From contig CBDUPA010000011.1 of the NCBI GenBank assembly GCA_965368975.1, forward strand, positions 32,001-96,000: DNA of 64,000 bases, given 5' to 3'. Positions 3,374 to 58,908 of this stretch are shown piece after piece; the stretch's first letter is position 1; every line of letters starts with the position of its first letter. The translations under genes and the position numbers were made by a program. The stretch is from an uncultured bacterium. Lineage in GTDB: Bacteria > Acidobacteriota > Thermoanaerobaculia > Multivoradales > JAHZIX01. The notes under the pieces are model-generated. The model did no database searches and was not told where the DNA came from. It saw only the letters and a program-made list of their open reading frames with translations.

Positions 3374-4411
3374 TTACTTCTGGCGGTCCCCGTACCGCAT
3401 CTCGAAGCTGACCCCGAACTGCAACGACTCGCGCCGCACCTCGTCTGGATCGCGCGGCCAGGTCATGCCGGCGTAGCCTTCGACGAAAAACCACTCCCGC
3501 AACCAACGCTGGCGGTAAATTGCCCGCACCGTGTAGCGCCCCACGTTCACCGGCACATCCGTCTCGCCGCGGATCGAAGCCTGGTATGCCATCGCCCTTT
3601 CGCCGCCAAGGTTCTGGTAGAGCGTGAAGGCGGTCAACCAGTCGACACCGCGCGTCGATTCGGACCAGGTGCCATAGTTGGCCCAGCGCAGCAGCAGGTT
3701 CGGCGTCAAGACCTGCTCGACATCCGTGTTGTGCGTCAGGCCGTACCCTTTCTGGTTGCGCCAGAACAGCGTGTTGCGCATGCGCACCAGGCGATAGTCC
3801 GTGAGAAACCACTGCCGCCGCCCGCGTACGCGCACGAAGGGATCGAGCGGCAGATCCAGCTTCACGCCGGCATCCACGTCCAGCGTCCGATTCTTGCGCT
3901 TGGCCGGACTGTAGCCGAGACCCACCAGCCATTCCTCTTCGCGGCTCGCGTCGAAGAAGTCGGGCAGCTGCTCCAGCTCTTCGCGCCCACGGTTGGCGGC
4001 AAAGTCGTCCTCGTCGTCGCGATTGATGAACGCGCGCCATCGCTTCTCGGCCCGTGGTAGGTAGAGCTGCGCGTCGAGATCGATGTCCAGGTCGACGTTG
4101 TCGTCCTCGTCCCAGGCGACTCCGGCGGTCAAGCGGCCGTAGTTTTGCTCCAGCTCGGAGTCGTAGCGCTCGTCACCGAAGAAACCGTCGAACCAGCGGC
4201 CGGTACGGCAGGCGGAGCGGTGCAGGCCGGTGCGGAAGGTATCGAGCCACACGTCGCGGCTAGGTGGTTTTGCCGTGCACGGCTCCAGCTCGGCCTCTTC
4301 CGGGGCTGGCGCCTCTGGCGAAGGGGTGGGCTCCTCGCCGGGTTGATCGTTGGCGGCGAGGCAGAGCGGCAGGAGTAGGGCGCAGGTGAGTAGGAACGAT
4401 GCGCGGTCCAT
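3374..4411 (-). CDS. Secreted hypothetical protein, probable outer-membrane beta-barrel
   Basis: ATG at 4411, signal peptide, amphipathic aromatic-rich strands, ends FGVSFEMRYG. Confidence 0.7.
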   Translation of the reverse strand: MDRASFLLTCALLLPLCLAANDQPGEEPTPSPEAPAPEEAELEPCTAKPPSRDVWLDTFRTGLHRSACRTGRWFDGFFGDERYDSELEQNYGRLTAGVAWDEDDNVDLDIDLDAQLYLPRAEKRWRAFINRDDEDDFAANRGREELEQLPDFFDASREEEWLVGLGYSPAKRKNRTLDVDAGVKLDLPLDPFVRVRGRRQWFLTDYRLVRMRNTLFWRNQKGYGLTHNTDVEQVLTPNLLLRWANYGTWSESTRGVDWLTAFTLYQNLGGERAMAYQASIRGETDVPVNVGRYTVRAIYRQRWLREWFFVEGYAGMTWPRDPDEVRRESLQFGVSFEMRYGDRQK

Positions 4412-4463
4412 GAGCACAGCATAGCGTAGCAGGGGGGCCCGGCCTCCATCTCACGCCCCAGGA

Positions 4464-7400
4464 TCACGGAGCGTTCAGCCACCAGTAGTAGCTCACCGAG
4501 ATGCCGAACGAGTACTTGCTCTCCGGCCGGCCGATGGTACCTACGAACCTTGGAGTGTAGGCGCGCAGCCCATGACTGACGTGCGGTTCGGCCCCCCTGC
4601 ACGGAGGAGGAATACTTCGCTCCGGCCTGCCCGTACTCGGATCAGCACAGTAAGTGATCGTCGGTGACCAGGCCGCGGTGACTTGGGTTTCTGCCTGGGA
4701 GGAGCCTGACGCCGAGCTCCGCCCCTTCCGCCCATAGCCCTTTGGTCCAGGGGCAATGAGACGGTAGAAACCTCCGATTCCGCGTCTGCCAACCAAGGCG
4801 GCCGTCTTGTTGATGCCTGAGGTCAAAGCCTGGTTGATCTTCGTACCGAGCCAGCTAGGGCCGTTGAAGTTGACACCGAAGAAATAGCCAGAGTAGTCGT
4901 CGGGTGAAGGCGTGTCCCACACCAGGCCCAACGCTGTGCCGCCGGTCAGGTTGAAATTGCTGACCCCACTGTTCAGGGAAGACGAGAAATAGCCGTAGGT
5001 GGCAGTGCCAGCCCCGCCTCTGAACTTGAGACTCTCGACCCCGATACCGAGTCCCACCGCTCCCGCTCCGAAGCCGGTCTCCCCTGCGAAGCCCGAGTAG
5101 AATGCATCGAGCCGCTGATGCTCCTGGAAGGCCACGGTCAAACCAAACCCGGTGTGCAGCGCGGCAGAGAAGCTGCCGAAGCTCTTGGCGCTGGCTCTGA
5201 CCGCCAGCGCGACGTGAATGGTGCCCACGATCGCGAAGGCGACGGTGATCTTCTGGATCGTGGTGAGCCGACCGTCACGGTCGACTCGATTGATGGGGTC
5301 ACCGTAGGTATATACGTACCGGTTGAGCGATCGCGAGTCCTGCAGGTCGGCCTCCGCTCCGTCGGGTTGTGTGAAGCGTGCAATCTCCGGCGAGTACCAG
5401 CGGTGGTGTAGGAACACCAGGCCGGTGGCCGCGTCCCGATACGCACCGAGGAAGTCGAGGTCCGTGCCGAGCTCTCCGTCGCGCACGCCGAAGGCACCAG
5501 CAGGGGTGTCGTCGACGACCGCGCCCGTGCTCGCCAGAGCTTGGACCGTGCCCAGGTGATCGGCCATGAGAGTACGGGTACCCAACCCTGCTTCAAACAT
5601 TTGCAGAGGACCGTCGTCACCGTAGTCGTAGTGGCGCAGGAGAGCGCCAGCGGCGTCGCGCGTTTCGATCAGGCGTGGGAACTGGCTGCTGACGCGGTCC
5701 CAGACGAAGTCGACTCGAACACCGTCCTGCTCTCGGCTGAGCAACAGCCCGTCGATGGCGTAGCGATAGTCGACGACGGTCGGCGATGGGCCGGACCGTT
5801 CGAAGCGCGTCAGGCGTTTCTGGCTGTCGTAGATGAACGACTCGGTGGATGTGCCATCGCTCCGAGACGTCAGGCTGCCGTTGTCGTCCCAACCGTAGGT
5901 CCAAGTGCCATCCTGGAGCAGCCGGTCGTTGGCGTCGTAGGCGAGGGCGTGAGTACCGGAGGGAGCAGTGAGCGAGATCAGGTTGCCTCCGGCGTCGTAC
6001 GCGTAGCGCTTCACGCTCGTCGAACCGCCGTTGGATGTGGTTTCCTCCTGCAGCCGCCCCATGGCGTCGTAGACGTAGGAAACGGCTCGGCCCGGGGATT
6101 CTTGAAAGCCCGAAATCTGCCCGTTGGTGTCGTAGCTGTAGGTGATCCGGCGGATAGAGCTTCCCGAAGGCGACTGGTAGTCGAGACTGAGGACTCTGTC
6201 CGCGATGTCGTAACTGCGCAGGACGCTGCTGCTGTCGGGCATGTCCACTTGCAGAGGGCGGCCGCCGTCGTCGCGCGTCCAGGTCGTGGTGCCTTCTGGG
6301 CCGGTCTTCGATGCCAAGAAGCCACGCGCGTCGTAGAGGTAGGTCGTCGTGCCGCGCGGCGTGGTCATGGATGCCAAGCGTCCGGCGGCATCGAAGCCGT
6401 AACTGGTGACCGGTCCCCCGGCCGGCTCTCTCCAGCTGACCAACCGGCCCGCTGCGTCGTAGGTCATCTCGGTCGTGCCGTTGACGTCTGTCTTGGTGAG
6501 CAGGCGACCCATGTCGTCGAAGGTCGAGACTTCGGAACCGTCCGGGGCGCTGCGGGTGCTGGTGCGGTTGACGTCGTCGTAGTTCCATGTCGTCGTCGTG
6601 CCGTTGAAGTCGGTACAACTCGCCGGGCGCCCGTCACTGTCGTAGGTGCACTGCTCGGTTTGCCCCCCGGGCAGGGTGCGGCCGATCTCGCGTCCACGGG
6701 CGTCATGCAGGACGAGCGTAGTGTTGCCCCGCGGGTCGGTGACCCGGTCGAGGGAGCCGTCCGAGTCGTGGCTGTAGTGAGCGACGGAACCATCCGGTGC
6801 ATGGATCGTCGAGATTCTGCCCCCCGGCGAGTACTCGAGGCTCCATGGCAGACCGAAGAAGTCGGTGAAGGTCTCGAGTCGGCCGTTGGCGTCGTAGGTT
6901 CGGGATCGGGTAGCGCCGTCGGGGAAGGTGACGCGGGTCACCTGGCCGTTGCGGTCATGGTCGAAAGCGTAGGTGGTGCCGATGGGTCCTGTTGCCGAGG
7001 TGATCCGCCCTGCCGCGTCGTAGTTGGTCGTGATCCTGGCTCCGCCGGGCAGCTCGGTGGCGATGACACTGCCGTTGGCGTCGTAGGTGTAGGTCCGGGT
7101 ATTGCCGGCGCCGTTGCTCACCGATTGCAGCCGGCCGGCAGCGTCCCAGGTCTGGGACTTGGTCCCGCCTCCCAACACGGTGCTGGTGACCGAGCGGCCC
7201 AGTGCATCGTAGGCGCGGGTTACGATAAGTCCCTCCGGCAGGGTGGCCTCGAGGGCCCGGCCCTCGGCGTCATAATCGACCTGCGTGGCTGTTCGACCGG
7301 CGACGACGGCGCTCGCGGGCCGGCCCTGGGCGTCGCGTTGGAGGGACCACGCTCGCACCGGGTTGACCGCCCCGATCAGCTGGTTGTTGGCGTCGAAGGA

Positions 7401-10400
7401 CGTGGTGGCGATCTCGCCCAGCGGTGAGTCGAATTGCCGCAGATTGCCTTCCTCGTCGTAGTTGTAAGCCCAATCCACGGGCACCACACCGGCATCCGTG
7501 ACCAGTGTGCGGTGCTCGCCGATCAGCTGACCCCGGGCGTCGTTGTCGAGGGTGACGGTCACCCCTTCAGGGCCGGTCCAGGAGAGGGGGCGACCTTGGC
7601 CGTCGTAGGTGTAGGCGTCCACGGCGCCACTGGCATCGCGCATCTCGGTTACGTTTCCGGCCCCGTCGTAGCCCCACCGAGTGACGTTACCCTCGGGGTC
7701 GCGCGATGTCAGGCGATTGCCGCGCGAGTCGTAGGTGTTCACGATCTGCTCGCCCAGAGGGTTGGTGACCGTCAGCGGATTGCCGAGGTCGTCGTAGGTC
7801 GTCGAGCTCACCCTACCCATGGGGTCGGTGACCGTGAGTGGACGCCCCTGTGCATCGTAGGTCCAGCTGGTGACGTTGCCCAGCGGATCGGTGCGGGAGA
7901 GCTGATTGCCGAAGGTGTCGTACGACCGCAGCCACCGGTGGCCCAGTGCGTCGACGACGGCGGTGACATTGCCCAAGGCGTCGTACTCGAACACCGTGGT
8001 GTTCCCCAGCCGGTCCGTGACCTCCTCGCGCTGGCCCGCGATGTCGTGGGTGAAGACGACTTCCTTGCCATCCGCGTCCAACTGGCGGATCAACCGGCCG
8101 TCGGCGTCGTACTCGTTGCGCAGCGCGCGGTTGCCCAGGGGATCCTCGACGCGGAGCAAGTCATGCCGGGCTCCGTAGAAGAACCGCGTCGTATTGCCAC
8201 GGAAATCCGTCGCTGTGCTCAGGTCACCCACAGCCGAGTACGTGTAAGTGCGCTCGTTGCCCAGCGGGTCGGTCACCTTCACGATACGGTCCCGCGCGTC
8301 GCGCTCGAAGGCCACGCTGCTGCCGGAAGAATGGGTCAAGCCGCCGGCATCGAAGGCCAAGCTGTTGCCATTGCGATCCTCGATCAGGGTGACACCCGAC
8401 GGCCCGAACTCGATCCGCACATCGGTTTCCGTGGTGTAGCGGAACTGTTCCGGCACGAACAGCGAAAAGTCGCTGTCGTCGAGCAGCGATACGGCGCCCG
8501 GCTGCGCGTCCGCGATCCTCAGGAAGATACCGTCAGGTACCTCCAGGCGACCGCGGGTTCCCGGCAGGGGTTGGAAGCTGCCCGAGACGAAGGAGAACGG
8601 CACCAGTGGCGACACGGTCACGCTGGGCACGAAGTCGAACCTCTCGGCACGCTGTCCGGGAATCTGCACGGCACACCGATGCAGTCGAGTCGGCACCAGG
8701 CTGAAAGCGAGCCCGGATCGACCGACGAACCAGCCCTCGCCGAGGGGGTTGGTGCAGGTGAGCTCGACCGTCTGGAGTCCGAGGCGCCAACCAACGCCGA
8801 AGTCGCCTTGACGCTTGTCGCGGCTGTCGTAGGTGCGCGACACCGTGATCGGGATGCCAGAGAGCGGTACCTCGAGATCGGTGAAGTCCAGGGTGAAGTG
8901 GCCGATCTTCCGCTCACCGTCGACCTGGACGGTGACCTGGTCGATGGTCTGGTTGCCACCGGCGTCGAGAACGGTGAGCCGGAGTGCGTAGAGACCATTG
9001 AGCAGCAGCGTCGGATCGAGATCCCCCAGCTTGCCGCCGACGATCGGTGCCGTACCACCGCCGATGCCGGTGAACGTTTCCTCGCCCGCCGGCGAGATCG
9101 CCAGCTCGTAGCGCACCAGATTGGGATCGTTGGCCGTACCGAGAACCTCGATCGGACCGAAGACGCTTTCCCCATCCTGCGGCGAGGCGATCTCCACCGT
9201 CGGTGCGTCGTCGTCCGAGCCGTCGAAGTCGGTCACATTGACCATGGCTGTACCGACGACGGCATCCACGGTGGCCGTGATCTGCGCGGGTCCGGTGTTC
9301 GCAATGGCGATCAAGCGGCCACCGGGTGAGACTGTCGCCGTGGTGCTGTTGAGGCTCTGCCAGGTTGCAAGTGAGGTGGCTATCTGGCTGGTGCCATCGG
9401 CGAAGATGGCGTAGGCCTGGAGCTGAAAGGTCTCCCCGGCCAGCAAGTCGAGCATGTCGGGTCGAATGACGACCTGGGCGACCGGCTCGCTTCCGTCGAA
9501 ACCGTCACAGTCCTGGTCGATCCCGTCGCCCGCCGGATCAGGAGCACCGGGGAAGATGGTGTTGTCGCCGTCGTTGCAGTCGCCGCCGTTCTCGGTGAAG
9601 GTGTCGCCATCGTTGTCGACATCCTCCGGCGCGGGACCAAGAGAGATCACGAGATCGACCGCGTTGCCGAACTCGGTGACCGAACCACCGATCGGGGTCT
9701 GGGCGCTGACCGCACCCGCCGGAACCGTCGGGTGGAGGGTCTCCGACACCTTGCCCACCAGGAGATTCGCCGCCAGGATGTCCGCCTCGGCGGCCGCCTT
9801 CGGTAGGCCCACGACGTCGGGGGTGGTGACGGGATCACCGACTTCGAGATCCCACGACTGGTCGACGGCGAAACCAATGGTGTCGGTCGCCAGGAGGCTC
9901 ACCGGGAAGATGCCGTTGGTGTCCGGCAACCACCGCACCTCGCCGGTGACTGGATCGACGGTCATGCCGTCGGGTCCGGCGGTGAGGTGGAAGGTGACGG
10001 TGTCGCCGAGGTCCGGGTCGACCACGATCGGCGCGTAGGTGTACTGGAAACCGCGGGTGGTGAGCGCGTCCGGCTCGGTGAGGAAACGGGGCGGATTGCC
10101 GGCGGGCAGAATGTCGAGGGTCACGGTGGCGCCGCCCGAATCGAGCACGCCGTCGTTGGCGCGATAGGTGAACGTCTGCATCGTCCCGATCAGCGGATCC
10201 GGCTCCTGTTCGAGCAGGAAATAGCCGTTGCGGCCCGGCTGCAGCCAATGGGGCACGGGATTCGTCGGAATGGTCAGGTCCGGGTTGACCATCGCCTCGT
10301 TGAAGTTCCACTGGTTGCGATAAGGCGGCGCCGCCGGCAGCGGATTGGCCGCGCTTCCGGTCCAGACCCTCAGGTAGTCCGTTCCGAGCACGCTCCACGA

Positions 10401-13307
10401 GATGATGATCTCGGCATCCCCATCCTGGTCGACGTCGGCGACTGCGGTGAGATTGTGCTCGCCAGTCTTGCGGTTCGGTGCCTCGGCCATCGCCAGCACG
10501 CTTCCGTCGGTGCCATCGATGACGTACACCTGGCCGTCAGTAGCGGTGCTCGGAGTGTGACGGAAGACCAGGTCGTGTGCGCCGTCTCGGTTCGCGTCGA
10601 AGGCGATGGCGCCCTCGTCGTCCCGAAACAGGTTCGCCACGTCCAGGGACGCGTTGCCCTCGTGGCTCCAGAGCAGGGACGTACCGGCGGCTCCGATGTC
10701 GAGAACCTGGAGGAAGCAGCGGTTCTCACCGGCGTCACAGGGCATGTCGCTCATCTCGAGCTCTTCATCGCCATCGAAATCGGCGACGACGATCTGACTC
10801 TCGACGACGTTGGGAATCGCCTCCTGCCACTTGACCGTGCCGTCGTGCTCGAAGAGATAGCGGTTCCTTCGGTCGCGGCCCAGAAGCTCTGGAAAAGCAT
10901 CGTCGTCGAAGTTGGCCACGGCCAGGACGAGGTGACCTGCCGTCACCGTGCCGACGGAGACGGGTGTCGGCAGGCGAAACTCGACCTCTCCCGTCTGAGC
11001 TGGTCCACCGACCGGCCCCGGCATGCCGTCATGGTCGAGCACGGTGTTGTGGACGATCACCTCCATCGTGCCATCGAGGTCGAGATCGGCAACGGTGGCC
11101 ATCTTCTGGTCGTTACTGCCCCCCTGCCGGAAATCGGACATGTACTCCCACTGGATGGTGCCGTCCTCGGCGTTGTAGACGATGACGCCGGAGTAGACGT
11201 TGTGGTTGAAGCCCATGTCGATGCCGACGACGATCTCGACCGTTCCGTCGGCATCAATGTCCACGAGCTCGAGACCGGCGCTGTGCAGCTTGCCGCTGCC
11301 ACCGTTGGTGGTCGAGAGGTAGTGCGAGGTCCCCGTGACCCAGGCGAGGCTGCCGTCGTGGTGGACGGCGATCAGATGCTCGCCGTCGATACTGGCCGCT
11401 GGATCGTAGTTTCGAGCGCCGATCAGCTCGAGGTCGCCATCGCCGTCGATGTCCAGGAGAGCGACCTTGGACGAGGTGTACACTCCGCCGTGGCTCGCCA
11501 CCAGGCTGTAGTCCATGACCGGGTTCCCAACGGCGTCCCGCTCCTCGATGCAGGTATCGGCATCGACGATCCAGAACTCACCGTTGCAGGTGCATCCCGC
11601 CATGTGATCCACGCCGACGATCTCGAGGTCGCCGTCGCCGTCGACGTCACCCACCGCCAGCGTTCCCCGGGTCGAGAAGCCGCGTTCAGGGGTAGACGGT
11701 CCGGTCTGGCACAGCAGCTCGAGCTCGACCGGCGTCGTCCGATCCGGAGGCTCGAGCAGGAACTCGAACGAGCCATCGGCGGCAAGGGAGAGATCGCCCT
11801 GGGCCACGTCGGTAGCGAGCACCGCGGTCAAGGCGTCTCCGTTCGGGTCCGAGTCGTTGGTCAGCACGCCCGGCGCGGCGACCTGGAGCCTGTCGCCAAG
11901 ACGCGCCTCGAAGACATCGTTCCGAGCCTGCGGCGCGACGTTGATCTCCAGCACCTCGACCGCGAAGTGGGTGAAGTCGAGGTGGCCGTCGGCATCGTCC
12001 ACTTGTACGGTGACATCGTGCATGCCGACCTGGTGAGTGCCGGGCGTCCAGGAGACCGCGCCGCTCGCCGGGTCGATCGTCATGCCTGGCGGCGACAAGG
12101 GCAGGGAGAACGTCAGCGTGTCGTTGGGCAGGTCGGGGTCGGTGGCGGTTGTGTTGAGATTCAGGGTCGCGAGTTCGACGACCTGCCGCCCGGCGATGGC
12201 ATCCAGGGTGGGAGGCCCGCCTAGATCCCGCACGTCGACCGTGAAGGTTCGCTCGTCGCTTGCGCCCGCCCGGTCGGTGACCCGGACCCGGAAGGTGTGA
12301 GCACCGATCTGGGCACTGCTGGGCACCCAAAGGAGTGAACCATTCGCCAGATCGATACTGGCGCCGGCCGGACGCTCCACCAAGCTCCAGCTGAGCGTGT
12401 CAGCGGGCAGGTCGAGATCGTTGGCTGCAGCCACCAGCGCGACGATCTCGCGCTCGCGTACCTGCAGGTCGGCTAGCGGCTCCAACACCGGCGCGCTGTT
12501 GGGCGCGGTCTGCGCGATGCAGATCGTGTCGCGAACGTCGACCAGCGTGTCACCGTTGCAGTCTGGATCACCCGGCGCGACACCGCGCTCCAGAATCTGG
12601 TCGACGATGACCGCAATGTCGGCGGCATTGACGGATCCGTCACCGTTGGCGTCACCGGGTTGGACGGCAGCGTACGCCAGGGGTGCGAGAGCAAGACCGA
12701 GCCCGAGCACGACGAGGGCCACGGTGCCGCGACGCAGCCTGTGCAGCGCGAATCCGAGCAGCACGCAGATCAACAATACAAGGCTCCAACCCCCGAGCGT
12801 CGGGATCTCCAGGGGGGACTGGGCCAGCGCAACCACCACCTGGCCGTCTACGACTTCGGTAGGCGACACTGCCAGCGCGGATGTGGACGCGACCAGCAAC
12901 GACTCCACCATCACCGGCCAGGTACCGACCGGGGCGTCGGCGGCGATCTGGAAGGGAACGACGATCAAGCCGCCATCGGCCAGAGCGGAGGGCGTGCCGG
13001 TCACCACGGTGACGCGGAGGCGGCCTGGACTGATCTCGGTCCAGTCCAGGCTGTGGTCTACGAGGGCGCTGCCGGCGGTAGGTGTCCCCGCGTCAAGAAC
13101 CGCATCGTCCCAGGTCAGATCGAACTGCACCGCCGCGCCATCTGCGCCCGACGTCCAGTCGAAGGCGACCAACACATCGCTTCCCGGGGCACCCTCGGCG
13201 GAGAGCCCGATCAGGTTCGGCTGCGCCACCGCCGCTGGCGTCACCAGGATGCCGAGTAGCAAGAGTACGAAGGGAGCGGAAGAGAGTCTCCGTGCAACAT
13301 CAGACAT
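4464..13307 (-). CDS. Giant RHS/YD-repeat protein with cohesin-like, IPTL-CTERM, dockerin-like, Ig/cadherin-like, FG-GAP, PASTA and Big domains plus a C-terminal extension
   Basis: 2947 aa ORF; many YD repeats (~5300-8400); RHS core end RWYSPEIARF...LNRYVYTYGDPINRVDRDG; DxDGDGxxE repeats (~10400-11660); PASTA-like (~9630-9830); DxDGD..DCND..PGA..DGIDQDCDG motif (~9500-9620). Confidence 0.92.
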   Translation of the reverse strand: MSDVARRLSSAPFVLLLLGILVTPAAVAQPNLIGLSAEGAPGSDVLVAFDWTSGADGAAVQFDLTWDDAVLDAGTPTAGSALVDHSLDWTEISPGRLRVTVVTGTPSALADGGLIVVPFQIAADAPVGTWPVMVESLLVASTSALAVSPTEVVDGQVVVALAQSPLEIPTLGGWSLVLLICVLLGFALHRLRRGTVALVVLGLGLALAPLAYAAVQPGDANGDGSVNAADIAVIVDQILERGVAPGDPDCNGDTLVDVRDTICIAQTAPNSAPVLEPLADLQVREREIVALVAAANDLDLPADTLSWSLVERPAGASIDLANGSLLWVPSSAQIGAHTFRVRVTDRAGASDERTFTVDVRDLGGPPTLDAIAGRQVVELATLNLNTTATDPDLPNDTLTFSLPLSPPGMTIDPASGAVSWTPGTHQVGMHDVTVQVDDADGHLDFTHFAVEVLEINVAPQARNDVFEARLGDRLQVAAPGVLTNDSDPNGDALTAVLATDVAQGDLSLAADGSFEFLLEPPDRTTPVELELLCQTGPSTPERGFSTRGTLAVGDVDGDGDLEIVGVDHMAGCTCNGEFWIVDADTCIEERDAVGNPVMDYSLVASHGGVYTSSKVALLDIDGDGDLELIGARNYDPAASIDGEHLIAVHHDGSLAWVTGTSHYLSTTNGGSGKLHSAGLELVDIDADGTVEIVVGIDMGFNHNVYSGVIVYNAEDGTIQWEYMSDFRQGGSNDQKMATVADLDLDGTMEVIVHNTVLDHDGMPGPVGGPAQTGEVEFRLPTPVSVGTVTAGHLVLAVANFDDDAFPELLGRDRRNRYLFEHDGTVKWQEAIPNVVESQIVVADFDGDEELEMSDMPCDAGENRCFLQVLDIGAAGTSLLWSHEGNASLDVANLFRDDEGAIAFDANRDGAHDLVFRHTPSTATDGQVYVIDGTDGSVLAMAEAPNRKTGEHNLTAVADVDQDGDAEIIISWSVLGTDYLRVWTGSAANPLPAAPPYRNQWNFNEAMVNPDLTIPTNPVPHWLQPGRNGYFLLEQEPDPLIGTMQTFTYRANDGVLDSGGATVTLDILPAGNPPRFLTEPDALTTRGFQYTYAPIVVDPDLGDTVTFHLTAGPDGMTVDPVTGEVRWLPDTNGIFPVSLLATDTIGFAVDQSWDLEVGDPVTTPDVVGLPKAAAEADILAANLLVGKVSETLHPTVPAGAVSAQTPIGGSVTEFGNAVDLVISLGPAPEDVDNDGDTFTENGGDCNDGDNTIFPGAPDPAGDGIDQDCDGFDGSEPVAQVVIRPDMLDLLAGETFQLQAYAIFADGTSQIATSLATWQSLNSTTATVSPGGRLIAIANTGPAQITATVDAVVGTAMVNVTDFDGSDDDAPTVEIASPQDGESVFGPIEVLGTANDPNLVRYELAISPAGEETFTGIGGGTAPIVGGKLGDLDPTLLLNGLYALRLTVLDAGGNQTIDQVTVQVDGERKIGHFTLDFTDLEVPLSGIPITVSRTYDSRDKRQGDFGVGWRLGLQTVELTCTNPLGEGWFVGRSGLAFSLVPTRLHRCAVQIPGQRAERFDFVPSVTVSPLVPFSFVSGSFQPLPGTRGRLEVPDGIFLRIADAQPGAVSLLDDSDFSLFVPEQFRYTTETDVRIEFGPSGVTLIEDRNGNSLAFDAGGLTHSSGSSVAFERDARDRIVKVTDPLGNERTYTYSAVGDLSTATDFRGNTTRFFYGARHDLLRVEDPLGNRALRNEYDADGRLIRQLDADGKEVVFTHDIAGQREEVTDRLGNTTVFEYDALGNVTAVVDALGHRWLRSYDTFGNQLSRTDPLGNVTSWTYDAQGRPLTVTDPMGRVSSTTYDDLGNPLTVTNPLGEQIVNTYDSRGNRLTSRDPEGNVTRWGYDGAGNVTEMRDASGAVDAYTYDGQGRPLSWTGPEGVTVTLDNDARGQLIGEHRTLVTDAGVVPVDWAYNYDEEGNLRQFDSPLGEIATTSFDANNQLIGAVNPVRAWSLQRDAQGRPASAVVAGRTATQVDYDAEGRALEATLPEGLIVTRAYDALGRSVTSTVLGGGTKSQTWDAAGRLQSVSNGAGNTRTYTYDANGSVIATELPGGARITTNYDAAGRITSATGPIGTTYAFDHDRNGQVTRVTFPDGATRSRTYDANGRLETFTDFFGLPWSLEYSPGGRISTIHAPDGSVAHYSHDSDGSLDRVTDPRGNTTLVLHDARGREIGRTLPGGQTEQCTYDSDGRPASCTDFNGTTTTWNYDDVNRTSTRSAPDGSEVSTFDDMGRLLTKTDVNGTTEMTYDAAGRLVSWREPAGGPVTSYGFDAAGRLASMTTPRGTTTYLYDARGFLASKTGPEGTTTWTRDDGGRPLQVDMPDSSSVLRSYDIADRVLSLDYQSPSGSSIRRITYSYDTNGQISGFQESPGRAVSYVYDAMGRLQEETTSNGGSTSVKRYAYDAGGNLISLTAPSGTHALAYDANDRLLQDGTWTYGWDDNGSLTSRSDGTSTESFIYDSQKRLTRFERSGPSPTVVDYRYAIDGLLLSREQDGVRVDFVWDRVSSQFPRLIETRDAAGALLRHYDYGDDGPLQMFEAGLGTRTLMADHLGTVQALASTGAVVDDTPAGAFGVRDGELGTDLDFLGAYRDAATGLVFLHHRWYSPEIARFTQPDGAEADLQDSRSLNRYVYTYGDPINRVDRDGRLTTIQKITVAFAIVGTIHVALAVRASAKSFGSFSAALHTGFGLTVAFQEHQRLDAFYSGFAGETGFGAGAVGLGIGVESLKFRGGAGTATYGYFSSSLNSGVSNFNLTGGTALGLVWDTPSPDDYSGYFFGVNFNGPSWLGTKINQALTSGINKTAALVGRRGIGGFYRLIAPGPKGYGRKGRSSASGSSQAETQVTAAWSPTITYCADPSTGRPERSIPPPCRGAEPHVSHGLRAYTPRFVGTIGRPESKYSFGISVSYYWWLNAP

Positions 13308-13443: not shown

Positions 13444-15963
13444 ATGCTTTGGTCCGTGTCAGACTTGGATGATCACCCCCGGAGGGAGCTTCCCTTGACG
13501 TCACCCGAGCAGTCCCGAAACGCCCTGGAATGGTTTGAACGCCTGGTCGAGGCGCGGACGGAGGAGCGCTCTCGCCAGCTGGTCGAGCTGCAGCGCGAAG
13601 ATCCGGACCTCGCGACCGCGGTGTCTGCTCTGCTTGCGGCCGATAGCGAGCCGGGCCTCGATGCTCCTTTCGAGCCGGCCAACGGCCTTCCAGGGGTTCT
13701 CGGTCCGAGCGCCGGAGATCGGTTGGGCCCCTACGAATTGACCCACCTTCTCGGTGAGGGCGGCATGGGGACCGTGTGGGAGGCACGGCGTGTCGAGGGC
13801 GGCTTCGAGCAGCGTGTCGCCGTCAAGTTCCTGCGCTACGTGGTAGCCGACTCGAGAGGAGAACGGCGCTTCCGCTTCGAGTGTGAGGTACTCGGAAGGC
13901 TCCAGCACCCCACGATTGCCCACATCCTCGATACCGGTCAGACGGCGGCGGGAATCCCCTACCTGGTCATGGAGCACGTCGAGGGGCTCCGTATCGACGA
14001 GTACTGCGATCAGCGGATCCTGTCGATCCGGGAGCGTGTCCGGCTCGTGGTCAAGATCTGCGCCGCCGTTGCCCACGCGCACCGCAACCTGGTGGTTCAT
14101 CGGGATCTCAAGCCCGCGAACATCCTGGTCACGGACGAGGGAGAGCCCCGACTCCTCGACTTTGGCATTGCCAAGTTGTTGGACAGCGACCGAGAGCAGG
14201 CCGCCCTGACGGTCGAGGGCCCGGGACCCATGACGCTGGAGTACGCCAGCCCGGAGCAGGTCCAGGGAATGCCGGTGACGACCGCAAGCGATGTCTACTC
14301 CTTGGGGGCCTTGCTGTATCAGCTGCTCACCGGACAGACACCGTTCGGCAACTCGGCGAACTCACCCCTGGACCTTGGACGCTCGGTCGTCGAACAGGAC
14401 GCATCTCCTCCCAGCTCAGTACTGACGCGCAGCGCCTCCCGAGACGCAGCCGATGTGCAAGCTACTCTCGAAGCCCGTGGCGCTGCGACGTCGGAGCAGC
14501 TGCGCCGCGAACTCCGCGGCGACCTCGACAACATCGCGCTCAGGGCCTTACAGCGCGAGCCGGAGCGCCGGTACCCGAGCGTCGATGCGTTTGCAGCGGA
14601 TATCCAGAACTGGTTGACCGGGTTTCCGGTCGAGGCGCGAGGGGATTCGCTGGCTTACCGCGGCGCCAAGTTCGTCCGCCGCAATTGGCTCATCTTGACG
14701 GCGGCGACTCTCGTGTTCGCGGCCCTGGCGATTGGAATGGGCGTCGCCACGTGGAAGGCCAATGAAGCCCGCAAGCAGCGCTTCCGGGCCGACGATCACG
14801 CTCAACGCACCGAGATGGTCAACGCCTTCCTGGTGGATCTATTTGCCGCCCCCGGTGGACGTTGGTGGCGAGATCTGGAGCACAGAGGACCGGAGACCCG
14901 CGTCATCGACGTGATCGACGAGGCAGCGGCTCGACTCGAGCACGAGTTGGACGGAGCACCCCTCCAGCGGGCAACCCTGCACCAGACCCTGAACGACACG
15001 TATCTCGCACTCGGGCTGCCGGACCGCGCGGAGCATCAGGTACGGCGAGCTCTGGAGATTCGACAGCGTGAACTCGGAGAGATCGCCCCGGCCGTCGCGG
15101 AGTCGACGTACTACCTGGCCGCGACGCTCAAGAGCCAGGAGCGCTACGACGAAGCACTAGAGATCTACCGGGCCGCCCTCGAGATCGAGCAGCGCTTGCC
15201 CACGCCGAGCAGGAATCTCCCCTACGCTCTGAGTGAAGCAGCCACAACCGCTGCCCGGGTCGGCCTCCATTCCGAGTTCGAGATCTTGGTCCGGGAGGCC
15301 CTGCTCCGGGTGGAAGAGTCCGAACCGCACCTCGAGGGGTACCTTCTTTCTTTGCGCGCTTGGCACCGTGCGGAACGCGGCGAGTCGAGACTTGCCGAGC
15401 AAGATTTGGTAGAAGCTCGGAGGTGGTTCGAATCAGCCAGCCCGGAGGCCGAGTCTCTGCGTAGCAATGCGCGGATTAGCTGGGCTACCGTTGCCTGGCT
15501 TGGAGATGATCCTCAAGAAGCGTTGGAGATGACGGCCGAGCCATCCTCCGGCCGCAGCTCTCGTTTGCGAGTTCAGGTTCTCTTCGACTTGGGGCGCTTC
15601 GAGGAGTCCCGGCACTGGCTCGAGGGTTTGGAGAACACTGCTGCCCAGTTCCTCGAAGGTCAGGTCCTCAGTGGTCGACTGGCCTTGGTTCTCGACGGAG
15701 ATTCGGAGCTGTGCATAGCTCGAGTCGAGCCGGCGCTGGAAGCGGAAGAGCGCTGGTCAAGAGGGCCTACTTGGTACCTGGCCGAGGCACGCTCCGCCAT
15801 GGCAGCCTGTCTACAGGCTCGGGGGCTGCCCGGAGATCGGGGCAGAGCCAATGAACTGGCGGAGTCGGCGCGAGCGATGCTCAACGTCCTGTTCGAACAG
15901 GGAACGCCTTTGCATCGGCGGATAATCCTAGAAGCGACGAATCGTTTAGAGCCAGGCTCATGA
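13444..15963 (+). CDS. Hanks-type Ser/Thr protein kinase with TM helix and TPR-like C-terminus
   Basis: GEGGMG, VAVK, HRDLKPANIL, DFG, YASPEQ, DVYSLG motifs; TM segment WLILTAATLVFAALAIGMGVATW. Confidence 0.93.
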   Translation: MLWSVSDLDDHPRRELPLTSPEQSRNALEWFERLVEARTEERSRQLVELQREDPDLATAVSALLAADSEPGLDAPFEPANGLPGVLGPSAGDRLGPYELTHLLGEGGMGTVWEARRVEGGFEQRVAVKFLRYVVADSRGERRFRFECEVLGRLQHPTIAHILDTGQTAAGIPYLVMEHVEGLRIDEYCDQRILSIRERVRLVVKICAAVAHAHRNLVVHRDLKPANILVTDEGEPRLLDFGIAKLLDSDREQAALTVEGPGPMTLEYASPEQVQGMPVTTASDVYSLGALLYQLLTGQTPFGNSANSPLDLGRSVVEQDASPPSSVLTRSASRDAADVQATLEARGAATSEQLRRELRGDLDNIALRALQREPERRYPSVDAFAADIQNWLTGFPVEARGDSLAYRGAKFVRRNWLILTAATLVFAALAIGMGVATWKANEARKQRFRADDHAQRTEMVNAFLVDLFAAPGGRWWRDLEHRGPETRVIDVIDEAAARLEHELDGAPLQRATLHQTLNDTYLALGLPDRAEHQVRRALEIRQRELGEIAPAVAESTYYLAATLKSQERYDEALEIYRAALEIEQRLPTPSRNLPYALSEAATTAARVGLHSEFEILVREALLRVEESEPHLEGYLLSLRAWHRAERGESRLAEQDLVEARRWFESASPEAESLRSNARISWATVAWLGDDPQEALEMTAEPSSGRSSRLRVQVLFDLGRFEESRHWLEGLENTAAQFLEGQVLSGRLALVLDGDSELCIARVEPALEAEERWSRGPTWYLAEARSAMAACLQARGLPGDRGRANELAESARAMLNVLFEQGTPLHRRIILEATNRLEPGS

Positions 15964-16478
15964 GCACACATCCCCCCGACAACAACGTGAGTGATCGCTA
16001 CTTCGCCGAGGTCTATTCCCACCTCCGAGCCCTCGCCGGATCGTATCTCCGCCGCGAACGAGCAGGGCATACGCTGCAGCCTACGGCACTGGTCAACGAG
16101 GCGTACCTCCGGCTCCAGAATGCCTCGGCGGACGACATCCCAGATCGGGGCAAGTTCCTGGCGCTGGCCGCGCGCGCCATGCGTCAAGTCTTGATCGATA
16201 GCGCGCGCAGGCAGCAGGCGGACAAGCGGCAAGGGCAAGCGGTGACGCTCGAAGAGGGCCTACTCGGAACAGCGCCGCAGACGCTGGACCTGCTCGCTCT
16301 GGACAGGGCTCTTGAAGAGCTGTCTGCTCTCGACGAGCAACGAGCCCGAATCGTCGAGCTTCGCTTCTTCGCTGGGTTGTCCTGCGAGGAGACGGCTGAA
16401 GTGCTGGGTATCAGTGCGCGTACCGTGGTCCGGCAGTGGCGGTCGTCGCGTGCGTTCCTGCTGCACCGGCTGGGCTGA
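15960..16478 (+). CDS. ECF sigma factor, TIGR02999/ECF43-like
   Basis: HTLQPTALVNEAYLRL and ARIVELRFFAGLSCEETAEVLGISARTV motifs; ATGA overlap with kinase stop. Confidence 0.92.
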   Translation: MSTHPPDNNVSDRYFAEVYSHLRALAGSYLRRERAGHTLQPTALVNEAYLRLQNASADDIPDRGKFLALAARAMRQVLIDSARRQQADKRQGQAVTLEEGLLGTAPQTLDLLALDRALEELSALDEQRARIVELRFFAGLSCEETAEVLGISARTVVRQWRSSRAFLLHRLG

Positions 16479-16881: not shown

Positions 16882-16990
16882 ATAGGAGCAAGAGAAGTTC
16901 GAAAGAACCTTGCCCGCAGTTCTGGGTTTCTCAGCTCTGGACGGCAAATGGCACAACTCTCACAACGGTTTCCCAAACGAGGAGTACGAA

Positions 16991-17899
16991 ATGCAGAAGT
17001 CGATCCGCTTGCTTTGCCTGGCCGCTCTCGCGGCGTTCACCACTCTTACTCTGGCTCCGGCTGTTTCGGCAGACGTCTACGATGAAATGAAACTGGAAGC
17101 TGCTGCACTGCGGGTGGAGCTCATGGCGGACGCTACCGAATCCCTCCCGGGCAATGACGAGTGCGCGAATCCGTTCGGTGATCTCGCTGTCGGCACCGTC
17201 ACCTCCGGTTCGAGTACCGGTGCGACTCTAGATGCACCTCCCGCGCCGGATTTCTGTGGCACCTCTATCAACGGACCCGGGGTCTGGTACACGGTGACTG
17301 GCACCGGCAACACGATGTCGGCTTCGACCTGCCTTGGTGGTGGTAACGCCGGCTTCGATTCCAAGATCAGTGTTTTCTGTGACGACTGTGAAGACTTGAA
17401 GTGTGTCGCTGGCAACGATGATGACAGTGCTTGTGGCTTTGCTTTCACCTCGACCGCCTCCTGGACCTCGCAGCCGGGGGCCAAGTACCGGATCCTGGTG
17501 CATGGTTTTGCCGGCAGTCAGGGCGACTTCGATCTGGCGATTCTCGACGACGGCGTGCCGGCGACGGCGGATGTGGAATGTCCGCCCGGCGACAGCGATG
17601 GTGACGGTGTGGCGGATCCGGTCGACTTCTGCCCCGACACCGTGATTCCGGAGTCGGTGCCGACCTCTCGGCTGGGCGTCAACCGCTTTGCGCTGGTCGA
17701 CGACAACGGTATCTTCGACACCACGTCGCCACAGGGCAGGGGCCCCCGTCTGACTTTCAGCATCGAGGACACCGCAGGTTGCTCTTGCGAGCAGATCATC
17801 GCTGAGTTGGGACTCGGCAAGGGGCACGAGAAGTTCGGCTGCAGCATCAGTGCGATGGAAGACTGGGTAGAGGTGGTTGCACCTCTGACTAGTCCGTAG
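16991..17899 (+). CDS. Secreted Cys-rich protein (PPC/CUB-like beta domain, TSP3-like DSDGDGV..D.CP motif, Cys-containing C-terminal domain)
   Basis: GAGGAG RBS before ATG 16991; signal peptide ending AVSA; NDECANP, GVWYT and CVAGNDD motifs. Confidence 0.75.
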   Translation: MQKSIRLLCLAALAAFTTLTLAPAVSADVYDEMKLEAAALRVELMADATESLPGNDECANPFGDLAVGTVTSGSSTGATLDAPPAPDFCGTSINGPGVWYTVTGTGNTMSASTCLGGGNAGFDSKISVFCDDCEDLKCVAGNDDDSACGFAFTSTASWTSQPGAKYRILVHGFAGSQGDFDLAILDDGVPATADVECPPGDSDGDGVADPVDFCPDTVIPESVPTSRLGVNRFALVDDNGIFDTTSPQGRGPRLTFSIEDTAGCSCEQIIAELGLGKGHEKFGCSISAMEDWVEVVAPLTSP

Positions 17900-18002
17900 G
17901 TTCTCGCCGGACGACGATGCCGTGGGCACGGCTCGTCCAGTGAGACACAACCACCGGGGTCGCCGCTACGTCTGGCGACCCCGGTTCTTGAGATGTGGCA
18001 AC

Positions 18003-19775
18003 ATGACACTTGCGATGATGCAAAGAACACGCGTATTTCGAACTCTGGTCAACATTGTGGCGTTGGCGCTGAGCGCTGGTTGCAGTGACGAAGGATCGGT
18101 GTCGCCACCTGGCGAAAGCCCCGAAAAGGTCGCCAACCTCACGGGGGTACCTCAGTGGTTTACGGACATTACCCGTGAAACCGGGCTCGACTTTGTGCAC
18201 GAATCAAGTCCCTTGGATGAGTTTCATACCCCGGCTGTGATGGCCGGTGGTGCTGCCTTCTTCGATTTCGACAACGACGGTGATTTGGATATCTACTTCA
18301 CCAACGGCAACCATATTCTGCCTGCAGCGAGGACCGAGGACGGACCGCGCAACCATCTCTACCGGAACGATGCGGGCCGCTTTGTGGACGTCACCGAAGT
18401 GTCCGGCCTTGGCGATGCCGGCTATGGCATGGGCGTGGCGACGGGTGACATCGACAACGATGGTGACGTGGATGTCTACGTCACCAACTACGGCCGGGAT
18501 CGCCTCTTCCGTAATGAGGGCGACGGGACGTTCAGCGATATCACCGAGGTTGCTGGATTGACTGTGGAGGGCTGGTCGAGCTCGGCCGCCTTCTTCGACT
18601 TCGACCGTGACGGTTTCCTGGACCTCTACGTGACGCGCTACGTCGACTATCGTGCGAGCATGACATGCGTCGGCCAAGATGGTGCGCCGGACTTCTGTGG
18701 TCCCCTGTCCTTTCAACCCGTTCACGACATCCTGCTGCACAACCAGGGTGCTGGCAAGAACGGCGAATCGGTCGCATTCACCGATGTCAGCGAACAAGCT
18801 GGCATCACGTCTGTTGCCGCCGCTGGTCTCGGCGTTGCTTGCCTCGACCTCGACGGTGACGGTTGGCAGGATGTGTACGTCGCCAACGATGCGTATCCGA
18901 ACCAGTTGTGGATCAACCAGGGTGACGCCACTTTCCGAGATGACTCGCTAGTCTTGGGAGCCGCCTACAATCTTCATGGCCAGGCGCAGGCAGGGATGGG
19001 AGTTCTCGCCGAGGACTTCGATGGAAGCGGTACCTTCGACCTCTTCCTGACCCACCTGATGAACGAGGCCAACACCCTATACGGCAATCTCGGTGGCATG
19101 TCTGGCTTCCAGGATGTGAGTGGTAGCAGCGGTCTCGGTCCCTCGAGCATGCCGTATACCGGCTTCGGTGTTGCTGCATTCGACGCCGAGCTCGACGGCG
19201 ATCTCGACCTTTTCATCGCCAACGGCAGGGTCAACATCGCCGGCCCGGTTCCAGGGTCGAGCTACCCGCCGCCCTGGGATACCCTGCCCGAATCGAATCT
19301 TCTTTACCTGAACGATGGCCGCGCCAGCTTCACTCGGCTTGTTGAACCGGCTCAATCCCTCAGCTCGTCGCGTGAGATCAGCCGTGCCGTTGCCAGCGGA
19401 GACATTGATGGCGACGGAGACGTCGACCTGCTAGTCGCGAATCTGCTGGACGGAGCCCGGCTGTACCGGAACGACGCTCCGCACCAGGGGCATTGGCTGT
19501 CCATCCGGGCCGTTGACCCTCGGCTGCGCCGTGACGCGTTGGGGGCGCGGGTGACTTTGGTGCTGGGAGAGTTGCGCGTGGTACGCCATGTCTCGCGATC
19601 TTTCGGCTATCTCGCGAGTCATTCGCCATGGGTTCATTTTGGTTTGGGCGAGGTCGCGGAGTTCGATCACATCGAAGTACGGTGGCCGGACGGCAGCCAA
19701 GAGGTCTTTCCCGGAGGTGCAGCTGATCGCAAGATCTTGCTGCGGCGAGGTGAGGGAGAAGCCGCGAATGGGTAA
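18003..19775 (+). CDS. CRTAC1/ASPIC-UnbV family FG-GAP repeat lipoprotein
   Basis: Lipobox LSAGC; repeated DFDNDGDLD motifs; C-terminal HFGLG...IEVRWPDG; start uncertain (18003/18015/18018). Confidence 0.88.
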   Translation: MTLAMMQRTRVFRTLVNIVALALSAGCSDEGSVSPPGESPEKVANLTGVPQWFTDITRETGLDFVHESSPLDEFHTPAVMAGGAAFFDFDNDGDLDIYFTNGNHILPAARTEDGPRNHLYRNDAGRFVDVTEVSGLGDAGYGMGVATGDIDNDGDVDVYVTNYGRDRLFRNEGDGTFSDITEVAGLTVEGWSSSAAFFDFDRDGFLDLYVTRYVDYRASMTCVGQDGAPDFCGPLSFQPVHDILLHNQGAGKNGESVAFTDVSEQAGITSVAAAGLGVACLDLDGDGWQDVYVANDAYPNQLWINQGDATFRDDSLVLGAAYNLHGQAQAGMGVLAEDFDGSGTFDLFLTHLMNEANTLYGNLGGMSGFQDVSGSSGLGPSSMPYTGFGVAAFDAELDGDLDLFIANGRVNIAGPVPGSSYPPPWDTLPESNLLYLNDGRASFTRLVEPAQSLSSSREISRAVASGDIDGDGDVDLLVANLLDGARLYRNDAPHQGHWLSIRAVDPRLRRDALGARVTLVLGELRVVRHVSRSFGYLASHSPWVHFGLGEVAEFDHIEVRWPDGSQEVFPGGAADRKILLRRGEGEAANG

Positions 19776-58116: not shown

Positions 58117-58908
58117 ATGGCAAGCGGTGGCAAGGTAGCATTTCGTCTGGTATCCGGTCTTCTGACGACCATTTTTCAGGCGCCTAAGAGGACTGGCACA
58201 CCCGTGCGATGGGCAATCTTGCTGGGCTTGGTAGGCGCCGGGATTTGGAGCGAGACTAGGGAGTTTCTCGTGAGTCACCCGACTGAAAGCGGCTTCGGAC
58301 TTTTCGCGATCGCCGCTGTGGCCTATGCATACGACCTCCAGGCACGCCTTGTTGGCCTTGATGGTGTCAGTTTGAAGTCTGCAACCGCACAGGCAAGGTA
58401 TGTAGAGATGTTGAAATTCAGCCCAGAAGGGGAGATTCGTAACATCCTCGCATGCACTGTTAGCTATCAACTGCTCAATACTTCTGGCGAAGTAGCCCAT
58501 TCCTTCCCGTTGGTCGAACTGGTTTCTATCTCGCCATCCAAAGCAACCAAGACCATCCAGGTGCAAGCAATCGATGCAAGCCTACGGAGCCGACCGCTAA
58601 CCAGTCGGGGTCTAGGCGACCTGCTGACGCAGGGCTACGAGATGATCTTGCATCCACGCCAGACTACCAACTTTGAGTATGGCGTCTGCTGGTCAAATGT
58701 AGATATGGAGCGACTAGCCAGGTCGGGCCGGCTCCATGTTCGGTTGACGCTTGAGATCGTCGGTCAAGAAAAAATTGTGAAGCTACTCAAACTGCCTGTT
58801 ACGCTACCGATGCTTGAGAAGTCGCCGCAGTCAGCAAATCCATCATCTTCCAAGGCCTTGCCACCACCCCCGCCTTCATTGCGGGAGTCATCCGGATCGA
58901 GCGGTTGA
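58117..58908 (+). CDS. Hypothetical membrane-anchored passenger protein
   Basis: Lower-GC ORF with two hydrophobic segments then a beta-rich domain; overlaps the transposase 3' end convergently. Confidence 0.55.
   Translation: MASGGKVAFRLVSGLLTTIFQAPKRTGTPVRWAILLGLVGAGIWSETREFLVSHPTESGFGLFAIAAVAYAYDLQARLVGLDGVSLKSATAQARYVEMLKFSPEGEIRNILACTVSYQLLNTSGEVAHSFPLVELVSISPSKATKTIQVQAIDASLRSRPLTSRGLGDLLTQGYEMILHPRQTTNFEYGVCWSNVDMERLARSGRLHVRLTLEIVGQEKIVKLLKLPVTLPMLEKSPQSANPSSSKALPPPPPSLRESSGSSG

Follow-up and report, generated by a model that had tools for sequence, protein, structure and literature searches.

The window considered here is a 64,000-nucleotide stretch of DNA from an uncultured bacterium of the Acidobacteriota (contig CBDUPA010000011.1, positions 32,001 to 96,000). 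One long gene on its minus strand encodes a protein in which a cohesin is followed by a sorting-type membrane signal, a second hydrophobic segment, and a dockerin that heads a large RHS protein. This architecture is real and conserved, and is built from known parts (a cohesin, a dockerin, an IPTL-type signal, and an RHS toxin), although it is apparently undescribed, given that no account of a sorting signal and a restart segment between a single cohesin and a dockerin-RHS unit was found in open-access full text or bioRxiv. The gene may encode the two-part precursor of a surface-displayed RHS polymorphic toxin, which would be cut and then re-docked on its own cohesin, a reading to which a little less than an even chance is assigned.

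Layout of the gene

The open reading frame (ORF) and its parts, in amino acids (aa) of the translated protein and in positions of the window, are as follows.

4464..13307, minus strand: the whole ORF, 2947 aa plus stop (P0001), from the ORF call and its translation
13224..13307, minus strand: N-terminal Sec-type signal peptide, aa 1-28 (MSDVARRLSS...PAAVA↓QP, the arrow marking the predicted point of cleavage here and below), read from the sequence
12828..13223, minus strand: cohesin, aa 29-160 (Pfam match aa 37-159), from PF00963
12729..12806, minus strand: internal IPTLxxW sorting-type signal, aa 168-193, with IPTL, GGW, a transmembrane (TM) helix, and RLRR, from TIGR04174
12669..12728, minus strand: second hydrophobic segment, aa 194-213 (GTVALVVLGLGLALAPLAYA), from hydrophobicity and comparison with the proteins P0015 and P0016
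12510..12659, minus strand: dockerin, aa 217-266, from PF00404, with the loops read from the sequence
11760..12500, minus strand: Ig and cadherin-like repeats, aa 270-516 (He_PIG, Big_9, Cadherin_4/5), from Pfam
11052..11261, minus strand: FG-GAP_3, aa 683-752, the best of four stretches in a region of the beta-propeller type, from Pfam
9642..9830, minus strand: PASTA, aa 1160-1222, with a MopE-type motif (aa 1243-1270) and then Big_2 (aa 1276-1355) after it, from Pfam
5271..8903, minus strand: RHS shell, aa 1469-2679, with DUF6531, 22 RHS/YD repeat stretches, and Rhs_assc_core at aa 2606-2679, from Pfam and NCBIfam
4467..5270, minus strand: C-terminal tail after the RHS core, aa 2680-2947, with no family match

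An initial annotation, made from the letters of the DNA, had proposed this series of domains in a single ORF, and the Ig, FG-GAP, and RHS domains that it placed downstream are recovered there by Pfam and NCBIfam. All of its items are borne out at the positions given, with the caveat that the IPTL and dockerin models reach their cut-offs in isolated pieces only. A Shine-Dalgarno-like GAGGG, read from the sequence, lies approximately 8-13 nt upstream of the ATG. The signal peptide has the form and the place that were claimed for it, with RR, a hydrophobic core, and an AVA↓QP end, and its A-x-A-Q/A-P junction recurs, in alignment, in the homologues. The only IPTL-type motif, the only cohesin, and the only dockerin of the window are those of this ORF; a second IPTL motif was looked for in the window and not found.

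Conservation of the single reading frame

A word-based search with aa 1-290 recovered 13 long proteins that cover the N-terminal region at 37-62% identity, 11 of them over at least 84% of the query, together with two RHS proteins that match the dockerin only. The first 330 aa of 11 homologues, which are 36-63% identical over this region, were aligned with the window protein to give alignment A1, of 12 rows. The A1 profile was then compared with 1.84 billion representative proteins, which produced 14,586 matches at E<=1e-3, of which 161 reached E<=1e-30. The best 150 of these matches were taken together with the word-search set and, minus the 13 redundant cluster members P0017-P0029, make up the sample of 162 proteins on which the family counts are based.

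The cohesin, the membrane module, and the dockerin are found in this order in 37 of the 162 proteins by local hidden Markov models (HMMs) derived from A1, 12 of them by construction and 25 further. The remainder of the sample is formed by 70 proteins with cohesins only, 20 with a cohesin and a dockerin and without a match to the module, four with a cohesin and the module only, four with dockerins only, two that look truncated at the N-terminus, and 25 with none of the three parts. When counted independently of the module HMM, 57 proteins have a dockerin placed after a cohesin. In 46 of these, the cohesin is single and 52-101 aa separate it from the dockerin, with two uncharged runs of at least 13 aa in this spacer in 43 of the 46. 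The remaining 11 carry several cohesins, a spacer of 0-15 aa (125 aa in one case), and no RHS repeats. All 29 RHS-bearing proteins, defined by at least five YD..G motifs, carry the membrane spacer.

One of the members comes from an isolate, Sediminihaliea albiluteola, in which the protein (P0039, WP_182168657.1, under the RefSeq name "putative Ig domain-containing protein") is encoded on a contig of 1.3 Mb. Other family members are named Lysobacterales MAG (metagenome-assembled genome). A profile search of genome contigs recovered, among the matches listed (at least 45 loci), generic dockerins only and none of this family.

The architecture proposed in the initial annotation is thus found in relatives: 43 of the 162 proteins, the isolate protein among them, carry one cohesin, two hydrophobic segments, and a dockerin, in this order. 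The single ORF is likewise real, as the uninterrupted frame recurs in these 43 proteins, and the homologues speak against a stop after RLRR. Judged from these alignments, the arrangement exceeds chance, given that dozens of diverged proteins share the domain order.

The cohesin and the dockerin

The cohesin stands at the place claimed for it. The Pfam model PF00963, with a gathering cut-off of 24.1 bits, matches aa 37-159 at 31.5 bits in a 200-aa piece, 30.0 bits in a 330-aa piece, and 26.7 bits in the whole protein, and also matches all 12 aligned family members. A profile of the family N-termini matches solved cohesins in the PDB (6kg8_A at E 9.7e-12 and 1g1k_A at E 8.5e-9), and matches solved dockerins weakly, at E 0.007-0.02. 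Five polar residues of the cohesin, Q61, D63, H85, D88, and R98, are invariant in the 12-sequence alignment, and are candidates for a conserved binding face.

Dockerins follow a calcium-loop rule of the D-x-N/D-x-D...D type, with a helix after each loop. The window dockerin carries two Asp/Asn loops of the calcium type, DANGDGSVNAAD and DCNGDTLVDVRD, read from the sequence, and the Asp, Asn, and Gly columns of these loops are invariant in the 12 aligned sequences. The PF00404 model (cut-off 22.9 bits) scores 26.1 bits on an isolated 74-aa piece and 20.7 bits on the 330-aa piece, and leaves the whole protein unlisted at E<=1; nine of the 12 aligned members are matched at E<=0.01. With both loops legible and the model passing on the isolated piece, the dockerin-like pair described earlier can be recognized at its place. 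Two Cys residues are also conserved, C250 being invariant and C263 present in at least 90% of the sequences, and this pair may be a hint of an oxidising, extracytoplasmic location. The dockerin has the highest mean pairwise identity of the N-terminal module, at 0.72, compared with 0.41 in the cohesin.

The internal sorting-type signal

The sorting-type signal at aa 168-193 (IPTLGGWSLVLLICVLLGFALHRLRR) consists of an IPTLxxW motif, a hydrophobic helix, and the Arg/Lys cluster RLRR, and is not C-terminal, as 2754 residues come after it. The IPTL is encoded at 12795-12806, exactly as the initial annotation had it. The NCBIfam model TIGR04174 (IPTL_CTERM, cut-off 20.5 bits) aligns with these residues over positions 1-26 of its 27, with a borderline score of 24.3 bits in a 46-aa piece, 20.3 bits in the 200-aa piece, and 19.4 bits in the 330-aa piece, the whole protein being unlisted. 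This model matches eight of the 12 aligned members at E<=1. Over 39 family sequences, the consensus of the internal signal is IPTLGPWGLLLL, with IPTLGPWG as its motif part; the Pro is present in all 39, as is an I or V before it, and W is found at the seventh position in 16 of the 39.

A second model, NF033207 (midcut-by-XrtH, 175 positions, cut-off 45 bits), matches all 12 aligned members at E<=1, with a best E of 2.1e-8, although the per-protein scores are all below the cut-off (16.2-19.7 bits in the window protein, and 32.4 bits in the best of the family). The window protein aligns with positions 9-83 of this model, that is, with the motif, the first helix, the loop, and the second helix. 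The match extends to position ~81-94 in the fused family, through the second hydrophobic segment, and positions ~31-63 align with the true C-terminal IPTL-CTERM tails of three cohesin proteins, P0137, P0152, and P0166. On these scores, the window family resembles the midcut-by-XrtH family at a level below the cut-off, and is not a member of it. XrtH is, according to NCBI product names, an exosortase specific for IPTLxxWG. Neither a pairing of IPTL-CTERM with XrtH nor a publication on the midcut-by-XrtH family was found in open-access full text or bioRxiv. The name of this curated model, which speaks of a mid-protein cut made by XrtH at an IPTL-like signal, hints at such a pairing.

Sorting signals of the IPTL class are thought to be removed by a sorting enzyme, and cutting at the IPTL of the window protein would be expected by analogy with the signals found at C-termini. 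If a sorting enzyme removes the signal, the mature cohesin would leave its helix anchor and pass on to the cell surface. The membrane-anchored cohesin of the initial annotation stands in its domain, and is corrected in its anchoring by the helix, if signals of this class are indeed removed. In a passage of PMC8671808, the S-layer protein of Methylomirabilis is described as an IPTL-CTERM protein, which supports, by analogy, the routing of such proteins to the outermost layer.

The second hydrophobic segment and the topology of the chain

A second hydrophobic stretch, ending in AYA-A, had been reported immediately after the sorting-type signal and is present there, with 22 uncharged residues at aa 194-215 (GTVALVVLGLGLALAPLAYA, ending in LAYA↓AV). 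A signal-peptide pattern can be recognized by eye, with RLRR as the n-region, GTVALVVLGLGLALAPL as the core, and AYA↓A at the -3/-1 positions, the window junction having Pro at -5 and Ala at -3 and -1. The loop between the two hydrophobic segments is net basic in 35 of the 37 module proteins, and is only 2-9 residues long in most members. The cohesin ends approximately eight residues ahead of helix 1, and the dockerin begins no more than approximately nine residues past helix 2, again in most members. The mean pairwise identity of segment 2 is 0.29, in comparison with 0.23 in the N-terminal signal peptide and 0.27 in the first TM helix (TM1). Segment 2 is thus as poorly conserved as the N-terminal signal peptide, which fits the role of a disposable signal. 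The initial annotation had assigned the RLRR to a position between a stop-transfer signal and a second segment resembling a signal peptide, and this proposal fits the basic loop and the similar identities (0.29 vs. 0.23).

In P0005-P0008, P0030-P0036, and P0049, segment 2 keeps G(L/I)(T/S)FS..LGLTLFSSTIVRA, a conservation above that usual for a disposable signal. An internal start at a GTG (Val196) was also considered and was rejected, as it is without a convincing Shine-Dalgarno sequence and the basic n-region would be lost.

Under the positive-inside rule, a basic loop stays in the cytoplasm, and the basic loop that follows helix 1 implies that this helix should stop transfer, with the loop on the cytoplasmic side. 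An extracytoplasmic location is, in turn, required of the dockerin, Ig, FG-GAP, and RHS parts, given that they are domains of the calcium-loop, disulfide-capable, and surface types. With the loop inside and the dockerin and RHS parts outside, segment 2 must insert N-in/C-out and restart export. It can thus be strongly inferred that segment 2 re-crosses the membrane and that the dockerin/RHS part is located outside the cytoplasm. By analogy with P0015 and P0016, segment 2 may be an internal signal sequence or a reverse signal-anchor, with a possible signal-peptidase site at AYA↓AVQP.

The two halves as separate proteins

Each half of the window protein also occurs as a separate protein. The cohesin half is represented by P0137 (326 aa), P0152 (335 aa, with PASTA repeats), and P0166 (344 aa), which have a signal peptide, a cohesin, other domains, and a terminal IPTL-CTERM. 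The respective TIGR04174 scores are 18.3, 39.0, and 33.8 bits (cut-off 20.5), and the family cohesin HMM gives the cohesins of these proteins 107-115 bits. No stand-alone relatives were recovered by a word-based search with aa 1-200 against proteins of 110-350 aa, and the cohesin-IPTL-CTERM proteins were obtained later with HMMER.

The other half is represented by P0015 and P0016 of Acanthopleuribacter pedis, in which an ordinary signal peptide is followed directly by the dockerin and then by RHS. The distance between the signal peptide and the dockerin in these two proteins is the same as that between segment 2 and the dockerin in the family. The junctions are ...LWAQ↓QPGDVNGDG in P0015 and ...ITAQ↓PGDANGDG in P0016, compared with ...LAYA↓AVQPGDANGDG in the window protein.

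P0084 was considered as a natural split form and was rejected, since its frame appears to shift past helix 1. It is common for one chain to carry both a cohesin and a dockerin, as in the 11 multi-cohesin proteins and also in a Poribacteria MAG (L023, 3997..9670, plus strand). The latter locus encodes two tandem paralogues of ~940 aa with a signal peptide, WD40, a cohesin-like domain, a dockerin, and a C-terminal tail, in which the cohesin adjoins the dockerin without a membrane spacer.

The RHS cargo and its C-terminal tail

The RHS shell is recognized by PF05593 (E 2.8e-115), PF20148 (DUF6531), TIGR01643, and TIGR03696, which scores 56.6 bits against a cut-off of 32.5. The 268-aa tail that follows is Gly-rich with hydrophobic runs, and has no Pfam or NCBIfam match at E<=1. 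In local BLAST comparisons, the Ig/FG-GAP and RHS parts are common to the relatives and the tail is not; among the family proteins, the tail is matched only by P0010, at 29% identity. The sharing of the Ig, FG-GAP, and RHS parts, together with an unshared tail, corresponds to the pattern of the polymorphic toxins. The tail is presumed, from its sequence, to be a variable and undescribed toxin domain, which may possibly be membrane-active. The family scans reported no head typical of type VI secretion systems (T6SS), such as PAAR or VgrG, and no secretion system was found in the window, where the Pfam scan covered 33 ORFs and the NCBIfam scan 16.

Proposed processing and alternative explanations

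At 1132..3366 on its plus strand, the window encodes a 744-aa protein that joins a patatin-like phospholipase to POTRA and an Omp85 barrel, which implies that the host is a diderm, with an outer membrane. The closest named relatives of the PurD protein of the window, at 67-72% identity, come from MAGs labelled Acidobacteriota, Holophagales, Thermoanaerobaculia, and "Deltaproteobacteria", which makes an acidobacterium-like host probable, with low certainty. In the mechanism proposed here, the N-terminal signal peptide would export the cohesin, and the IPTLxxW helix, with its basic cluster, would then halt transfer and tag the chain for an exosortase-type enzyme, which may be XrtH, to judge from the name of the related NCBIfam model. 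The second hydrophobic segment, with the same basic cluster as its n-region, would restart the Sec export of the remaining ~2730 residues, and would itself probably be removed by signal peptidase at AYA↓A. The products would be a surface-routed cohesin and a dockerin-headed Ig/FG-GAP/RHS toxin, in a ratio of 1:1 and adjacent to one another at the membrane. The toxin itself carries no sorting signal, and would attach to the cohesin through the calcium-type loops of the dockerin and ride to the surface, where it would be held for contact-dependent attack. A precedent for such self-binding is provided by a passage of PMC4611034, in which the dockerin of Amy4 of Ruminococcus bromii binds the cohesin of its own chain.

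The mechanism of the initial annotation, in which processing would yield a cohesin and a separately exported dockerin-RHS cargo that re-docks on it, is plausible in the light of these comparisons. In its fully specified form, the gene would encode a natural envelope polyprotein, a Sec substrate cut by an exosortase-type enzyme at IPTLxxWG and by signal peptidase, with the toxin docking on the sorted cohesin, which is a possible, if rather doubtful, reading.

A number of observations weigh against processing and self-docking of this kind. The IPTL score of the window protein is borderline, being above the cut-off in the isolated piece only, and PF18203 gives no match to the protein at E<=0.01, while matching six of 12 family members. 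The motif differs among the members (IPTL, VPTL, VPAT, IPVA, IPVM, and others), so perhaps not all of them are substrates of one enzyme, and no exosortase gene was found among the scanned ORFs of the window. At segment 2, the -3/-1 rule holds in 36 of the 37 module proteins (32 under strict scoring), against 29 (22 under strict scoring) in the control at the end of TM1, so that the rule appears to be weakly enriched and weakly discriminating. One subfamily keeps LFSSTIVRA in segment 2, which is unusual for a plain signal peptide. The conservation of the dockerin, far above that of the cohesin, would also fit another, conserved partner, and a cohesin and a dockerin on one cellulosomal adaptor scaffoldin chain usually bind different partners. 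A protein of ~2700 aa would also have to pass the outer membrane.

Some of these points bear on a hairpin-anchored single chain, in which both segments would remain uncut and the helix hairpin would hold the cohesin and the dockerin-RHS part on the periplasmic face of the inner membrane, with the cohesin and the dockerin clasping in cis or bridging neighbouring copies. The loop of 2-9 residues in most members would suit such a structure, as would the distances of ~8 residues before helix 1 and at most ~9 after helix 2, which would set the two domains side by side. The LFSSTIVRA-type conservation of helix 2 suggests a role beyond that of a disposable signal, and the cleavage rule is not clearly above the TM1 control. 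A hairpin is nevertheless unlikely, since, in a diderm, which the Omp85/POTRA protein indicates the host to be, no other cell would be within reach of an RHS toxin held at the inner membrane. Helix 1 shows every feature of a sorting signal that can be removed, and this signature is also found at the true C-terminus of related cohesin proteins. In P0015 and P0016, the same dockerin-RHS unit is released by means of an ordinary signal peptide. The processing may also proceed as proposed with different partners, the dockerin binding another cohesin scaffold and the cohesin other dockerin proteins, in which case the fusion would ensure co-expression. The unequal conservation of the dockerin and the cohesin (0.72 vs. 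0.41) is in line with this, as are the multi-cohesin proteins with a closely similar Cys-containing dockerin (11 of the 57), the cohesin-only proteins (70 of the 162), and the stand-alone cohesin-IPTL-CTERM anchors, which could be receptors. Separate partners are still somewhat improbable, given that the window contains no further cohesin or dockerin and that all 29 RHS members strictly pair one cohesin with one dockerin across a fixed spacer, which is indicative of a functional couple; own-chain recognition is, in addition, documented for Amy4 in the passage of PMC4611034.

An artefact of sequencing or assembly, by which a stop codon was lost and a cohesin-IPTL-CTERM gene joined to a neighbouring signal peptide-dockerin-RHS gene, would account for a junction that resembles exactly a C-terminal tail followed by an N-terminal signal peptide, and both halves do occur as separate proteins elsewhere. 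It is scarcely credible in the face of an unbroken frame in 43 proteins of 31-63% identity, from different sources and assemblies and with an isolate genome included, and P0084, the sole apparent split short form, looks frameshifted itself. On this comparison of sequences, a fusion error is excluded for practical purposes, although a pair of genes of this kind may well have been the evolutionary origin of the fusion.

Relation to known systems

The internal signal shares [IV]PTLxxWG, a TM helix, and a basic cluster (consensus IPTLGPWGLLLL) with the IPTL-CTERM class of TIGR04174 and PF18203, and differs from it in its position in mid-protein, with 2754 residues after it, and in that no sorting enzyme was found among the scanned ORFs of the 64-kb window. 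The only precedent found for a mid-protein sorting signal is NF033207, which also has an IPTL-like signal in this position, whereas the scores of the window family are below 45 bits, the second half of the model is unmatched, and the model implies no cohesin, dockerin, or RHS. Exosortase-type signals are defined as C-terminal, and a mid-protein case with a restart segment would make them processing sites between two exported products.

A cohesin with a C-terminal sorting signal that acts as a surface receptor for dockerin cargo is known from the cellulosomes, as in the sortase-anchored ScaE of Ruminococcus flavefaciens and Sca2 of R. bromii. Unlike these systems, the window protein belongs to a diderm host, its signal is of the exosortase type rather than LPXTG, and an RHS toxin takes the place of a glycoside hydrolase as its cargo. 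The putative anchor and the cargo are also encoded in one ORF, parted by a membrane hairpin. In a passage of PMC4611034, Amy4 is found in R. bromii beside a ScaE-like wall-anchored cohesin protein. The role of the non-cellulosomal cohesins and dockerins is described as an open question in a passage of PMC5244752. A one-to-one cohesin-dockerin pair tied to a toxin would provide a clear experimental case for such a role, and the N-terminal module, of ~270 aa, is compact, portable, and present in a cultured isolate.

The window protein resembles the RHS/YD polymorphic toxins in its DUF6531, RHS repeats, Rhs_assc_core, and a C-terminal tail that varies from one relative to another. The RHS toxins of the WapA type are exported by Sec. 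Delivery of the window protein would, by contrast with toxins that have a T6SS head, involve Sec export, a sorting signal, and docking, and no description of the internal signal pair was found for RHS proteins in open-access full text or bioRxiv. For Sec-exported RHS toxins without a T6SS head, the family suggests a concrete route to the diderm surface and a means of retention there. If the polyprotein reading is true, it would represent a new route of RHS delivery in diderms, and the first working role for a mid-protein exosortase signal. Cohesin and dockerin are listed among the trafficking and repeat domains of the PT-TG polymorphic toxins in a passage of PMC13483458.

Neighbouring genes and other features of the window

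The gene next to the RHS gene is the following.

3374..4417, minus strand: ORF of 347 aa, 47 bp downstream of the RHS gene, with no Pfam or NCBIfam match

This ORF has a signal-peptide-like start, MDRASFLLTCALLLPLCLAA, and is found at the place expected of an immunity gene, yet looks exported. It is a candidate for an immunity or accessory gene, of uncertain membership in the system. On the other side, at 13444..16478 on the plus strand and divergent from the RHS gene, lie two genes with a 4-bp overlap, one for a Ser/Thr kinase-TPR protein (839 aa) and one for an extracytoplasmic function (ECF) sigma factor (TIGR02999, 172 aa). Together they could act as a regulator of the toxin gene beside them.

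A second FG-GAP protein, of the FG-GAP/ASPIC-UnbV type (617 aa), is encoded approximately 4.6 kb from the RHS gene, at 17922..19775 on the plus strand, and no family matches the 329-aa ORF ahead of it (16910..17899). An unusual fusion of an ATP-grasp protein of the L-amino-acid-ligase type with a GHMP-kinase N-domain (745 aa) is found at 33062..35299 on the plus strand, where it comes after a lyase_1/argininosuccinate-lyase-like gene and a pyruvate kinase gene. At 58799..59803, on the minus strand, the window contains an IS1-family transposase, with an InsA zinc ribbon and a DDE domain, in a stretch whose G+C content is ~0.60, compared with 0.65 elsewhere.

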